Positions 9,676 to 13,441 of a DNA stretch of 64,000 nt are shown here, piece by piece. Position numbers and translations under genes: made by a program. Below the pieces are notes generated by a model that did not search any database, had not been told where the DNA came from, and was given only the letters and a program-made list of their open reading frames with translations. The stretch is from Escherichia coli. GTDB lineage: Bacteria; Pseudomonadota; Gammaproteobacteria; Enterobacterales; Enterobacteriaceae. How positions within the stretch are numbered: position 1 is the first letter of the stretch; every line of letters starts with the position of its first letter. The DNA lies in NCBI RefSeq assembly GCF_003334255.1, contig NZ_QOWU01000017.1, one strand, 5' to 3'.

Positions 9676-10959
9676 TTAGCCTTTAGCTGTTGCATTTTGT
9701 TTATGAAACAGTTCACGGAACACCGGATAAATATCATCCTGGTCGCGGATGTGCTGCATCGCAAAGTTGTCGAAAGTAGATTGCAGATGCTCATATTCTC
9801 GCCACAATGTCTGATGTGCACGACGGGTAATTTCGATATAGCTGTAATAACGAACAACAGGTAATAATTTTTTCGCCAGGATTTCATGGCAAAGCGGAGA
9901 GTCATCGGCCCAGTTATCGCCGTCCGATGCTTGTGCAGCGTAAATATTCCACTGTGCCGGGTTATAACGCTCTTTCACTACCTCATCCATCAGTTTCAGG
10001 GCGCTGGAAACAATGGTGCCGCCTGTTTCCTGCGAGTAGAAAAACTCATGTTCATCGACTTCTTTCGCCTGGGTATGATGGCGGATGTATACGACTTCCA
10101 CGTTCTTATACGTTCTGCTGAGGAACAGATACAGCAGAATATAAAAACGCTTAGCCATATCTTTAGTGGATTGATCCATTGAACCGGAAACGTCCATCAG
10201 GCAAAACATCACTGCCTGGCTGGAGGGATCGGGCCGCTTCTCGTAGTTCTTGTAACGTAAATCGAAGGTGTCAATAAAAGGGACGCGTTCAATTTTGGCA
10301 CGTAATTCTGCAATTTCTTTGCGCAGACGTTCCTCTTCCAGCAGTTGCGCAGGTTCACTGTTGCTGATGATGGCCAAATTCTCTTCCAGTGCATGAAGTT
10401 CCCGCCGCTTGCCTGCCGTCATGGCTGTGCGTCGCGCCAGTGAGTTCTGCAATGAACGCACAACGCTGATATTGGCCGGAACGCCGTTAGCGGTATAACC
10501 CGCCCGATGCGTTTTATATTCGGTCAGCTGGCGTTGTTGGTTTTGTTTCAGATTCGGTAAGGCCAAATCTTCAAAGAGCAGATCAAGATACTCATCTTTC
10601 GAAATCTGAAAGACAAATTCATCCTGACCTTCACCATCCTGGCTGGCCTGGCCCTGACCACTGCCGGAACCTCCGCCGCCACCCTGGGGACGTTCAATTC
10701 GGTCGTTCTGGACGAAATGGTCATTGCCCGGATGCACGCGGTGGCGCAGACCGCCACGCCCCTGATGAAACATCGGTTCGCTAATATCTTCCGTGGGAAT
10801 GGATACGGATTCGCCGCTGTCGACGTCAGTCACCGAACGCTTATTAATGGCCTCGGAGATCGACTGTTTAATTTGCGCTTTATAACGGCGTAAAAAACGC
10901 TGGCGATTCACCATGCTTTTGTTTTTGCCGTTCAGACGCCGGTCAATAAACCAGGTCAT
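9676..10959 (-). CDS. yeaH: DUF444 protein YeaH (427 aa), partner of the PrkA-type kinase YeaG
   Basis: ORF track; glycine-rich low-complexity stretch; immediately downstream of yeaG. Confidence 0.9.
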
Positions 10960-11071
10960 ATGCCCCCCGTACTACATTTGCCAACTGTATGCTACGCCTG
11001 TGTTGCCGCTTCTCAGGCCCACGGTTCGCTGTCGTTGTAGGCCCGGTAACATGTGTACCGGGCCAGGGTTG

Positions 11072-13006
11072 TTAAGACGATTTACGTACGCGCAAATACC
11101 ATTCGCACAGTAAACGCACCTGTTTACGGGTGTAGCCTTTTTCCATCATACGGTCGACAAAGTCGTCGTGTTTCTTCTGCTCGTCGGTTGACGTTTTGGC
11201 GTTAAACGAGATAACCGGCAACAGCTCCTCGGTATTGGAGAACATTTTCTTCTCGATGACCGTGCGCAGTTTTTCATAGCTGGTCCAGTTCGGATTGCGT
11301 CCGCTGTTATTCGCTCTGGCGCGCAGTACGAAGTTAACAATCTCGTTGCGGAAATCTTTTGGATTACTGATCCCCGCCGGTTTCTCGATTTTCTCCAGCT
11401 CGGCGTTAAGAGACTCGCGGTCAAACAGCTGCCCGGTATCCGGATCGCGATACTCCTGATCCTGAATCCAGAAATCCGCGTAGGTAACATAACGGTCGAA
11501 AATGTTTTGCCCATATTCGGAATAGGATTCAAGGTAGGCCGTCTGGATCTCTTTGCCGATAAACTCGGCATATTTCGGGATCAGATAACCTTTCAGGAAC
11601 TCCAGATAGCGTTCTGCCTGCTCTTGTGGGAACTGCTCGCGCTCAATCTGCTGTTCCAGGACGTAGAACAGATGGACCGGGTTTGCTGCCACTTCTACAT
11701 GATCGAAGTTGAACACGCGGGAGAGGATCTTAAACGCAAAACGCGTCGACAGACCGTTCATCCCTTCATCGACACCGGCGTAGTCACGATATTCCTGATA
11801 CGACTTGGCTTTGGGATCGGTGTCTTTCAGACTTTCGCCATCATAAACCCGCATCTTTGAATAAATGCTGGAGTTTTCTGGCTCTTTCAGGCGCGAAAGA
11901 ATGGAAAAACGTGACAGTGTTTCGAGCGTGCCAGGGGCGCATGGGGCGTGAGTCAATTCACTGTGATTAAGCAATTTCTCGTAGATTTTGATCTCTTCGG
12001 AAATGCGCAAGCAATACGGCACCTTCACGATGTAAACACGATCGAGGAAGGCTTCGTTGTTTTTGTTATTACGGAAAGTGACCCATTCGGACTCGTTCGA
12101 GTGTGCGAGAATAATCCCGTTGAACGGCAGGGCGGAGATACCTTCCGTCCCGTTGTAGTTACCTTCCTGAGTGGCGGTTAACAAGGGATGCAGCACTTTA
12201 ATCGGTGCTTTAAACATCTCAACGAATTCCATGATCCCCTGATTGGCGCGGCACAGCGCACCGGAATAGCCGTAGGCGTCCGGGTCATTCTGCGCGTAGT
12301 GTTCGAGTTTACGAATATCGACTTTCCCAACCAGCGCGGAGATGTCCTGGTTGTTCTCATCGCCGGGTTCCGTTTTGGCGATAGCAATTTGTTGCAGAAT
12401 TGACGGCCAGACCTTCACTACCCGGAACTTAGTGATATCGCCACCAAATTCATGCAGGCGTTTTGCCGCCCACGGCGACATGATGGTGCCGAGATAACGG
12501 CGAGGAATGCCATACTCTTTTTCCAGAATCTGCGCATCTTCCTGCGGATTGAAAAGACAGAACGGATGATCGTTGACCGGGCTACGCTCACCGTTCGCGC
12601 TCAATACATAAATCGGTACGAGCTGCATTAATGATTTCAGTCGCTCAGCAAGCGATGATTTACCCCCACCCACAGGCCCCAGCAGATACAGGATTTGTTT
12701 CTTCTCTTCCAGCCCCTGAGCCGCGTGTTTCAGATAAGAGACAATCTGTTCAATCGCGTCTTCCATGCCGTAAAACTCTTCAAACGCCGGATAACGTGCA
12801 ATGACCCGGTTAGAAAAGAGTCGAGAAAGTCTGGGTTCCTGGGCTGTATCGACCATGACAGGCTCACCGATAGCCATCAATAGCCGCTCAGCCGCGTTGG
12901 CATAAGCACTGCGATCTTGCCGACAAGTGGTAAGAAACTCCTGCAGTGTGAACTCTTCGTCCTTGGCAGCTTCATATCGCTGGCGATAGTGATCGAATAT
13001 ATTCAT
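11072..13006 (-). CDS. yeaG: PrkA-family serine protein kinase YeaG (644 aa)
   Basis: ORF track; Walker A motif GPVGGGKSS near the N-terminus. Confidence 0.9.
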   Translation of the reverse strand: MNIFDHYRQRYEAAKDEEFTLQEFLTTCRQDRSAYANAAERLLMAIGEPVMVDTAQEPRLSRLFSNRVIARYPAFEEFYGMEDAIEQIVSYLKHAAQGLEEKKQILYLLGPVGGGKSSLAERLKSLMQLVPIYVLSANGERSPVNDHPFCLFNPQEDAQILEKEYGIPRRYLGTIMSPWAAKRLHEFGGDITKFRVVKVWPSILQQIAIAKTEPGDENNQDISALVGKVDIRKLEHYAQNDPDAYGYSGALCRANQGIMEFVEMFKAPIKVLHPLLTATQEGNYNGTEGISALPFNGIILAHSNESEWVTFRNNKNNEAFLDRVYIVKVPYCLRISEEIKIYEKLLNHSELTHAPCAPGTLETLSRFSILSRLKEPENSSIYSKMRVYDGESLKDTDPKAKSYQEYRDYAGVDEGMNGLSTRFAFKILSRVFNFDHVEVAANPVHLFYVLEQQIEREQFPQEQAERYLEFLKGYLIPKYAEFIGKEIQTAYLESYSEYGQNIFDRYVTYADFWIQDQEYRDPDTGQLFDRESLNAELEKIEKPAGISNPKDFRNEIVNFVLRARANNSGRNPNWTSYEKLRTVIEKKMFSNTEELLPVISFNAKTSTDEQKKHDDFVDRMMEKGYTRKQVRLLCEWYLRVRKSS

Positions 13007-13441
13007 GGTATGCCGTCCTTTCGTTTTTTAGCACAGGTTAAGAGCCGTTCATATGAATAGTAGAGGCTCCCGGAAGAGGTAAACTGAACGACGTCTCTTG
13101 CTAAAACACAGCAACTCTCATGCCATTTTATCGACGATGAGAACAACGTGCCCGGTGATACACCTTCAAAATTAAGCGTAGATGGCAAATGGAAAACTTG
13201 CCTGCACGGCTTTCTTAATTTCAATGGCATATCAACAACTCATCCATAAATTTTGCATAATTAATGTAAAGACCAGGCTCGCCAGTAACGCTAAATTCAT
13301 TTGGCTGTAAGCGCGGTGTCATCCGCGTCAGGAAAATTAAACAGTTACTTTAAAAAATGAAAACGTAAAAAGGTTGGGTTTCGATGTATTGACGGGTAAA
13401 CTTTGTCGCCCGCTAAACATTTGTTTAAGGAATGATTAATT

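Follow-up and report, generated by a model that had tools for sequence, protein, structure and literature searches.

Is the yeaG-yeaH operon of Escherichia coli a kinase gene with an accessory partner, or does it encode another kind of machine? Three laboratories have reached three verdicts on PrkA-family proteins (kinase, protease, neither), and papers on E. coli call YeaH similar to nothing known. We examined the operon within a 64,000-nucleotide stretch of E. coli DNA, hereafter the window, in which positions 9400..13700 match E. coli K-12 MG1655 at 100%. At least 80% of this segment is present at ≥95% identity in 5425 of 5426 complete E. coli genomes.

The yeaG-yeaH locus

Both genes are encoded on the minus strand. 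yeaG (11072..13006) encodes a protein of 644 amino acids, in which a small domain at the N-terminus precedes an AAA+ ATPase core that carries insertions and a PrkA C-terminal domain predicted to be all-helical. The product of yeaH (9676..10959) has 427 amino acids. Its N-terminus is basic and conserved; a disordered linker rich in glycine and a helical hairpin follow, and the C-terminal part is a predicted vWA domain. YeaG is matched by the Pfam profiles AAA_PrkA (PF08298, aa 19-380, E 2e-187) and PrkA C-terminal (PF06798, aa 382-636, E 1.7e-70) and by the NCBIfam equivalog NF011999 (1342 bits, cut-off 576), and YeaH by DUF444 (PF04285, aa 4-421, E 4.8e-191) and the equivalog NF003708 (843 bits, cut-off 466). 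As judged by these full-length profile matches, YeaG is a member of the PrkA family and YeaH of the DUF444/YhbH family. Because of the Pfam matches, we regard both as real genes and not as chance ORFs. The K-12 match and the family profiles confirm the gene names given in a first-pass annotation of this DNA, and its link of the pair to stress agrees with published work (PMC4664914, PMC10954441). The operon is a known one in E. coli K-12; operon and regulation are textbook-level, and nothing about them is new here.

As the same annotation had pointed out, yeaH follows yeaG on the same strand after 112 bp. Our scan of this spacer (10960..11071, minus strand) gave neither a terminator nor a match to a promoter. 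A GC-rich hairpin within it (11040..11064) lacks a T run on its downstream side, and the folding energy of the spacer equals that of shuffled sequences (z 0.08). Five nucleotides past the yeaH stop codon begins an intrinsic-terminator-like hairpin (9643..9671, minus strand), in which an 11-bp stem is followed by TTTTT.

YeaG is an AAA+ ATPase

The Walker A motif or P-loop GPVGGGKSS, recognized already in the first reading, is located at aa 110-118 of YeaG (12653..12679, minus strand). In a set of 50 PrkA-family sequences with 23-94% identity, its residues G110, K116 and S117 are invariant, and the P-loop, the Walker-B acids, the sensor-1 Asn and the Arg finger are likewise all invariant. By its catalytic residues and its predicted fold, YeaG is an AAA+ ATPase, and the Walker A motif belongs to this N-terminal module and not to any kinase domain.

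The AF2 model of YeaG (pLDDT 88.7) has NorQ and CbbQ as its nearest folds. Both are MoxR-type ATPases that act together with vWA partners. The MoxR profiles AAA_3 and AAA_5 do not assign YeaG to this group, with AAA_5 reaching E 0.11 over aa 107-133. YeaG resembles MoxR systems in its context, since its nearest folds are MoxR ATPases and the adjoining gene encodes a vWA/MIDAS protein. Compared with the known MoxR/vWA pairs (NorQ-NorD, CbbQ-CbbO, RavA-ViaA, CoxD-CoxE and BchI-BchD), YeaG falls outside MoxR by sequence. Its AAA+ core contains large insertions, and its helical C-terminal domain of 300 residues has no counterpart in MoxR proteins. A search with PADLOC for an anti-phage defence system gave only an IetA P-loop match (E 0.007), and we rejected this candidate.

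For PrkA of B. subtilis, a Lon-like ATP-dependent protease has been proposed, and YeaG could by the same token degrade regulatory or metabolic proteins in starvation. The B. subtilis protein hydrolyses alpha-casein in an ATP-dependent manner (PMC9512850), the P-loop region of YeaG gives weak sequence matches to Lon ATPase domains (E 0.007-0.03), and LonB and LonC are found among the Foldseek matches of YeaG. However, the likeness to Lon is restricted to the AAA+ module, with matches that span only aa 74-127, and the Pfam profile of the Lon protease domain (Lon_C) has no match on YeaG. The C-terminal domain is predicted to be all-helical, in contrast to the alpha/beta Lon protease domain. In addition, re-purified PrkA of B. 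anthracis had no protease activity, the prior weak activity being traced by the authors to a contaminant (PMC13001217). We thus regard a protease function of YeaG as very unlikely.

The case for a protein kinase

In the literature, YeaG is regarded as a Hanks-type (eukaryote-like) Ser/Thr kinase that slows down metabolism by phosphorylating proteins such as AceA, with YeaH in an accessory role. Autophosphorylation and casein phosphorylation by YeaG in vitro were reported (Tagourti 2008, as related by a citing paper), and a K426A variant does not complement (PMC4664914). A phosphoproteome of a yeaG deletion has been published in which phosphosites are altered and some proteins are less phosphorylated, and isocitrate lyase AceA, which shows a Phos-tag shift with malate only, was proposed as a substrate (PMC8055822). 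The AceA assay involved a 2-h incubation of YeaG and AceA in roughly equal amounts. Reports on phosphotransfer conflict: E. coli YeaG was found positive by Tagourti 2008 and in PMC8055822, and PrkA of both B. subtilis (PMC9512850) and B. anthracis (PMC13001217) showed no kinase activity.

Our searches argue against a kinase. No Pkinase-type Pfam profile matched YeaG at E ≤ 10 or any of 14 diverse C-terminal domains at E ≤ 0.1. A profile of the YeaG C-terminal domain, compared with 177,635 PDB sequences, retrieved no kinase at E ≤ 10; its sole significant match was the PrkA homologue 9xip (E 4.5e-67), and four unrelated non-kinase chains appeared at E 1-1.7. Regular expressions for GxGxxG, HRD, DFG and APE had zero matches in YeaG. 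The proposed catalytic lysine K426 is not conserved: among the 50 family members, 21 have K at this position, 18 have N and 11 have D. A nearby loop of YeaG, G415-x-x-G418-x-S420-x-R422, is invariant. In the AF2 model, aa 335-644 are predicted to be almost wholly helical and to lack the beta-sheet N-lobe typical of kinases, and the top structural matches include no kinase.

The likeness of YeaG to Hanks-type kinases is confined to historical annotation, weak in vitro phosphorylation and reduced phosphorylation in the deletion. The kinase label is weak because we found no kinase profile, motif or fold, the C-terminal domain is predicted to be all-helical and K426 is variable, and we consider a Hanks-type kinase unlikely. 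Where the first-pass annotation had called YeaG a PrkA-type kinase, the family assignment stands, but the kinase part is doubtful: on careful alignment, the invariant motifs are those of an AAA+ protein. As to the kinase substrates and YeaH, which it had also taken up, AceA had already been proposed as a substrate, and YeaH turned out to possess recognizable features.

YeaH carries a predicted vWA/MIDAS domain

The AF2 model of YeaH has a pLDDT of 86.1, with values mostly above 94 over aa 236-420. Structural comparison retrieved 81 PDB matches at E ≤ 1e-3, and among the matches listed all 50 are vWA domains (C2a, CMG2, Rea1-MIDAS, integrin I domains and NorD). The C-terminal part of YeaH is thus predicted to adopt a Rossmann-like vWA fold. 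It contains a MIDAS motif of the type DxSxS, D256-V-S258-G-S260 (10180..10194, minus strand), which is completed by T315 and D346. The residues D256, S258, S260, G313, G314, T315, D346 and G347 are invariant among 91 YeaH-family representatives (38-59% identity). Pfam VWA profiles do not match E. coli YeaH, and VWA_CoxE and VWA_2 each match three of the 91 relatives (E 0.03-0.1). Neither by sequence nor by profile did we find a solved structure of YeaH/DUF444 or SpoVR relatives in the PDB. Going by the invariant residues and the model, YeaH is not featureless and carries a vWA/MIDAS domain.

The glycine-rich low-complexity segment of YeaH that had been noticed earlier comprises aa 94-104 (10648..10680, minus strand). 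The pLDDT drops below 50 at aa 94-106, a G-rich stretch is kept at this place in the family consensus, and we predict that the segment is a flexible linker. Relative to MoxR partners, the N-terminal half of YeaH is unique.

The control region between mipA and yeaG

The divergent genes mipA and yeaG have a control region of 435 bp in common (13007..13441, no strand assigned). Its length had been called unusual for the window, which needs qualification: it ranks second, the xthA-astC region being longer (445 bp). The divergent arrangement is kept in four other Enterobacterales with a spacing of 416-452 bp. Published regulation, comprising NtrC/σ54 and σS promoters and control of a 93-nt leader by SdsR (PMC10954441, PMC4066584), already explains this region. 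A search for σS, σ54 and NtrC sites had been suggested in the first-pass annotation, and the first two were found.

A consensus scan identified a σ54 (-24/-12) promoter element, TGGCATGAGAGTTGCT, at 13110..13125 (minus strand) with one mismatch. It has the GG-N10-GC core within TGGCAC-N5-TTGCW in the correct orientation, for which a start about 12 nt downstream is expected. The transcript should therefore start near 13099, in agreement with the 93-nt leader described before (PMC10954441). With at most one mismatch, the element precedes the ATG by 96-129 nt (by 242 nt in one case) in 21 of the 25 Enterobacterales loci that could be tested, and it is absent from Vibrio, Shewanella, Pseudomonas and others. 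Farther upstream, a σS-type extended -10 element, TCTACGCTTAA, at 13172..13182 (minus strand) matches the consensus perfectly. Its core, CTACGCTT, is invariant in a five-genus alignment and occurs in 17 of the 25 Enterobacterales loci. yeaGH has promoters that depend on RpoS and on RpoN (PMC10954441), and the element at 13172..13182 is probably part of the published σS promoter, for which a start at about 13165 would be expected.

The 93-nt leader (13007..13099, minus strand) contains the ribosome-binding site GAAAGGA (13016..13022) and, at about 13028..13037, the conserved site for the sRNA SdsR, which pairs at -31..-22 (PMC10954441). Within the leader, ACCTGTGCTAAAAAA is conserved across five genera. 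Neither the leader nor the yeaG-yeaH gap has an Rfam match at E ≤ 1. Upstream of the promoters, phylogenetic footprinting revealed a conserved block, GGATGAGTTGTTGATATGCCATTGAAATTAAG, at 13213..13245 (minus strand) with an IHF-like core (13230..13242) that departs from the IHF consensus at one position.

NtrC sites, in contrast, were not found: palindromes of the form TGCACC-N5-GGTGCA with at most 4 mismatches in 12 positions do not occur in 13007..13441. For NtrC binding at yeaGH, ChIP-seq is the only source (PMC4066584). The 435-bp region likewise has no match to the Nac consensus. Matches for CRP (best with three mismatches) and for Lrp and ArgR (best with four) were weak and unconvincing, and five σ70 promoter matches compare with 5.4 expected from shuffled sequence. 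A 75-aa ORF on the minus strand (13003..13230) that crosses the promoter region was treated as spurious because in one aligned relative it is interrupted by a stop some 13 codons from its beginning.

The window also contains the astCADBE promoter (about 47487..47931), which likewise lies in a long divergent region (445 bp), has a σ54 match and is an NtrC ChIP target. Expression of astCADBE is also σS dependent. Unlike the yeaGH region, this promoter has characterised sites for NtrC and ArgR, and it controls a defined catabolic pathway, that of arginine succinyltransferase.

Conservation of gene order

The wide conservation ascribed to the pair is evident from 84 loci: in 82, yeaG is located immediately upstream of yeaH, and the contigs of the other two are truncated. 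This adjacency spans gamma- and betaproteobacteria as well as phages of Thermus and Ralstonia. Outside Enterobacterales, spoVR/ycgB follows directly downstream of the pair. Within this order, it lies 1.7-7 kb downstream in five loci and is missing from the fetched locus in the remainder. The whole triad is present in jumbo phages, megaphages and Thermus phages. YeaG and YeaH are direct members of the PrkA/YhbH/SpoVR triad of sporulation and stress known from B. subtilis (prkA-yhbH, spoVR), with an identical prkA-DUF444(-spoVR) order. Two features set them apart: in E. coli and most Enterobacterales ycgB/spoVR is split from the pair, and an NtrC/σ54 promoter, confined to Enterobacterales, has been added.

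The two proteins might nevertheless act independently, their adjacency reflecting shared regulation in starvation alone and not a protein machine. We found no data on a direct YeaG-YeaH interaction, and the length of the spacer is far from constant: where the ORF calls are intact, it spans about 3 to about 230 nt. Against independence stand the adjacency in 82 loci, phages included, and the common phenotypes of yeaG, yeaH and yeaGH deletions (PMC10954441), which make it quite improbable.

A model for YeaG-YeaH function

We favor, with a probability of roughly 55%, that yeaG-yeaH is a two-promoter operon encoding an AAA+ ATPase and a vWA/MIDAS adaptor, like NorQ-NorD, CbbQ-CbbO and RavA-ViaA. 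Both genes would be expressed as one transcript from two stacked promoters: an NtrC-dependent σ54 promoter giving rise to the 93-nt leader that SdsR represses, and a σS promoter about 70 bp farther upstream. The transcript would end at the hairpin just past yeaH. We infer a complex in which YeaG would be a ring-forming, ATP-driven remodeller and YeaH its MIDAS adaptor, whose metal site may grip an acidic residue of a client or of YeaG itself, with the conserved N-terminal tail tethered through the flexible glycine-rich linker. YcgB, a SpoVR-family protein encoded by an unlinked gene, would be the third component; mutant phenotypes and cofitness of yeaG, yeaH and ycgB are known from the literature. 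Such a third partner is specific to the YeaG-YeaH system, for which, in contrast to MoxR systems, no client for cofactor insertion or enzyme activation is known. A "metabolic brake" in nitrogen starvation and stationary phase has been published, and it could result from ATP-driven remodelling of clients instead of Hanks-type phosphotransfer. More tentatively, YeaG, YeaH and YcgB may constitute, in place of a kinase pathway or a protease, an unrecognised three-part AAA+/vWA-MIDAS/SpoVR remodelling machine that imposes metabolic quiescence.

Few bacterial gene modules that lack a mechanism are as widespread as this triad, which extends from starvation survival of E. coli to sporulation of Bacillus; for DUF444 alone, clustering at 50% identity gives at least 3,388 clusters. 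Once YeaH is seen to have an invariant MIDAS and YeaG a motor resembling NorQ/CbbQ, the question of what the triad does becomes cheaply testable. Phosphoproteomes of yeaG deletions should be read with caution as direct kinase-substrate maps. If the proposed machine exists, the triad would be self-contained enough to be carried by phages, presumably to reprogram the metabolism of their hosts.

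Organization of the yeaG-yeaH operon

The stretch from 9400 to 13700 is 100% identical to E. coli K-12 MG1655, is carried at ≥95% identity by 5425 of 5426 complete E. coli genomes and is annotated with mipA, yeaG, yeaH and cdgI. Both yeaG (11072..13006, 644 amino acids) and yeaH (9676..10959, 427 amino acids) lie on the minus strand, separated by a 112-bp spacer (10960..11071). These gene calls and the spacing, together with the GPVGGGKSS motif (YeaG residues 110-118), a glycine-rich low-complexity segment (YeaH residues 94-104) and a 435-bp upstream region, had been reported by the first-pass annotation and were all confirmed from the open reading frames and the sequence. 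A terminator-like hairpin followed by a T run (9643..9671) begins 5 nt past the yeaH stop codon. Scanning the spacer for a terminator or promoter gave no match, the hairpin within it (11040..11064) does not exceed shuffled sequence in stability, and an Rfam search of leader and spacer found nothing. The pair is a correctly identified, well-studied operon that was already known.

The mipA-yeaG control region

The 435-bp intergenic region (13007..13441) is common to yeaG and the divergent mipA. It had been called unusually long, and it does rank second in the window; the longest by RefSeq annotation is xthA-astC (445 bp). The arrangement and a length of 416-452 bp are retained in four further Enterobacterales, Cedecea and Dickeya among them. 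A motif scan placed a sigma-54 element (TGGCATGAGAGTTGCT) at 13110..13125 on the minus strand, and the start predicted from it (∼13099) corresponds to the 93-nt leader used experimentally (McQuail et al. 2023, PMC10954441). About 50 bp upstream, TCTACGCTTAA (13172..13182) perfectly matches the sigma-S extended –10 sequence KCTAYRCTTAA. The motif search originally suggested for this region recovered both promoter elements, but not the NtrC site: a consensus scan of 13007..13441 for the canonical palindrome found none. PMC10954441 shows that the SdsR sRNA, pairing at –31..–22, represses translation, and states that RpoN- and RpoS-dependent promoters serve yeaGH; NtrC binding at the control region has been reported from ChIP-seq (PMC4066584).

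A five-genus alignment revealed four islands of conservation where the remaining sequence has diverged: the sigma-54 element, the CTACGCTT core, the leader end with the SdsR site and ribosome-binding site, and a 33-bp block with an IHF-like core (GGATGAGTTGTTGATATGCCATTGAAATTAAG, 13213..13245, minus strand). This last block is kept from E. coli to Dickeya and lies upstream of both yeaG promoters. A 75-codon reading frame spanning promoters and leader (13003..13230, minus strand) is very likely not a gene, because it is interrupted after ∼13 codons in another enterobacterium (L002). The regulatory region is already accounted for; of the three checks first proposed for this operon, two have appeared in print.

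We surveyed 85 loci for a sigma-54 element upstream of yeaG, allowing at most one mismatch. It was present in 21 of the 25 testable Enterobacterales loci and in none of the Vibrio, Aeromonas, Shewanella, Alteromonas, Pseudomonas or Vogesella loci. From this confinement to Enterobacterales in the survey, we conclude that nitrogen control was added within one order. The element is missing from three Enterobacter loci (L011, L012, L013) and that of a Pantoea symbiont (L027). In L011 and L012, mipA lies ∼5 kb away rather than adjoining yeaG, suggesting that the control region was rearranged locally.

The xthA-astC region (47487..47931) contains a sigma-54 match with one mismatch (TGGCACGAACCCTGCA, 47844..47859, plus strand) upstream of astCADBE, likewise an NtrC ChIP target. 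Better growth on arginine, the substrate of the astCADBE pathway, as nitrogen source has been reported for yeaG, yeaH and ycgB mutants.

YeaG resembles AAA+ proteins

Published biochemical results on PrkA proteins disagree. [quoted passage not shown] Pfam assigns AAA_PrkA and the PrkA C-terminal domain to YeaG; even with the cut-off relaxed to E≤10, no kinase family appears. We aligned 50 family members (23-94% identity) from gamma- and betaproteobacteria, Armatimonadota, Sulfobacillus and phages. An AAA+ catalytic set is invariant (G110/K116/S117, E260, E263, K266, H302, N304, E307, E318 and R323), as is a C-terminal loop, G415-x-x-G418-x-S-x-R422. The first-pass description of a kinase with an intact Walker A motif holds for the Walker A residues, but kinase motifs and profiles were not found. 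R232, mutated in the literature as an AAA+ arginine, is not conserved in this alignment; the position of K426, mutated as the catalytic lysine of an “STK domain”, is K in 21 sequences, N in 18 and D in 11.

The phosphorylation results reported for E. coli YeaG keep a Hanks-kinase reading alive, but YeaG lacks those features of Hanks-family membership that could be tested, and we give this reading a low probability. No GxGxxG, HRD, DFG or APE motif was found in YeaG. A profile of 14 diverse PrkA C-terminal domains, searched against 177,635 PDB sequences, retrieved no kinase at E≤10; its sole significant match was the PrkA homologue 9xip (E 4.5e-67), followed by four unrelated non-kinase chains at E 1-1.7. 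Pfam likewise found no kinase family in the 14 domains, and in the AlphaFold model (pLDDT 88.7) residues 335-644 are helical almost throughout. The features of Lon-protease membership that could be tested are also absent from YeaG.

Foldseek returned 195 matches at E≤1e-3, and all 50 listed are AAA+, among them enhancer-binding proteins, LonB/LonC ATPase modules, BchI, ClpC, MCM and NorQ. Among these listed matches, the nearest folds belong to AAA+ groups with a pre-sensor-1 hairpin, which is a ranking of folds and not a clade assignment; they fall outside the “classical clade III” proposed for the B. anthracis protein (PMC13001217).

The invariant loop at residues 415-422 (∼11741..11764) sits at the N-terminus of a C-domain helix and adjoins the non-conserved K426. 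It resembles loops that bind anions or phosphate, and it might serve as a second ligand site.

YeaH contains a predicted vWA/MIDAS domain

According to E. coli papers (PMC4664914; preprint 10.1101/254623), YeaH resembles no known protein. Its family comprises at least 3,388 clusters at 50% identity (E≤1e-3). In 91 aligned representatives (38-59% identity), D256-x-S258-x-S260, G313-G314-T315 and D346-G347 are invariant, together constituting a complete metal-ion-dependent adhesion site (MIDAS) motif. The model (pLDDT 86.1) has a vWA-type α/β domain at residues 236-420, with these residues after β-1, in the loop preceding the third helix and after β-4; residues 94-106, rich in glycine, form a linker of low model confidence, and the N-terminus is basic and conserved (D6, R7, R8, N18, R25). 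Foldseek found 81 PDB matches at E≤1e-3, of which the 50 listed are all vWA domains, including the Rea1/midasin MIDAS and NorD of the NorQD complex. Pfam VWA_CoxE or VWA_2 touches only 3 of the 91 relatives (E≤0.1). Sequence and profile searches of the PDB found no solved structure for DUF444 or SpoVR relatives, and a literature search missing most subscription journals found no paper joining DUF444/YeaH to vWA, or PrkA to MoxR.

Some relatives are well above the usual length. In P0161 and P0213 (728-729 amino acids) the YeaH match falls in two stretches, suggesting a large insertion or fusion; in P0179 (643 amino acids) the match is unbroken, and the additional residues therefore form an extension.

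Gene neighborhood and phage copies

A YeaH-profile scan of one genome per species gave 80 loci, all gammaproteobacterial save two from Vogesella. With four previously retrieved loci added, 82 of 84 have yeaG immediately upstream of yeaH in the same orientation, and the other two are cut contigs; this bears out the first description of a widely conserved pair. Conservation is much stronger in YeaG than in YeaH: when E. coli is compared with Pseudomonas or Vogesella, identity is 77-78% for the former protein and 58-60% for the latter. Outside Enterobacterales, a 500-518-codon gene of the SpoVR family (NF008737, E 4e-284) follows yeaH at –4 to ∼60 nt, and all six more distant loci hold prkA, the DUF444 gene and spoVR. 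Within Enterobacterales, spoVR has been displaced from the pair: five loci have it 1.7-7 kb downstream of yeaH, and the other fetched loci lack it. This fits the known position of E. coli ycgB, unlinked to yeaG-yeaH.

The whole triad also occurs in metagenomic phage-like contigs, a Ralstonia jumbo phage and Thermus phages: loci L087 (3892..8735) and L089 (3787..9764), the 344-kb Ralstonia phage RsoM2USA (L091, 4944..9760) and Thermus phage phiYS40 (L090, 1549..7674). The metagenomic contigs also bear DNA polymerase, primase or ribonucleotide reductase genes, and in megaphages (595-642 kb) at least prkA and the DUF444 gene are present as a pair. In PHROGs each triad protein has its own family, all three labelled “unknown function”. 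Three distant loci have a small reading frame between prkA and the DUF444 gene (L087, 5811..5999, 62 codons; L089, 5805..5999, 64 codons; L088, 1356..1730, 124 codons); the products are mutually dissimilar and have no counterpart in the 112-bp E. coli spacer. In Enterobacter phage LAU1 (MN688132.1, 30.8 kb), positions 1..3299 hold yeaG and yeaH copies 97.7% and 93.4% identical to those of E. coli; these probably represent host DNA that was captured or wrongly assembled, rather than a set of phage genes.

A proposed AAA+/vWA machine

In the reading with the best support, YeaG and YeaH would assemble as AAA+ motor and vWA/MIDAS adaptor, with YcgB/SpoVR as third component, and ATP-driven client remodelling would underlie the published “metabolic brake” phenotypes. 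The complex, the role as adaptor and the remodelling of clients are all our inference. What we observed directly are the motifs, the predicted folds, the order of the genes and the anatomy of the promoters; regulation, phenotypes and the cofitness of yeaG, yeaH and ycgB (Price et al.) come from papers. The pair may work like NorQ-NorD, CbbQ-CbbO and RavA-ViaA; since its sequence (Pfam) does not place YeaG among the MoxR proteins, the proposal is one of working like these systems, not of belonging to them. The operon is known; for its biochemical mechanism, this analysis supplies a specific and cheaply testable alternative to the kinase label of YeaG.
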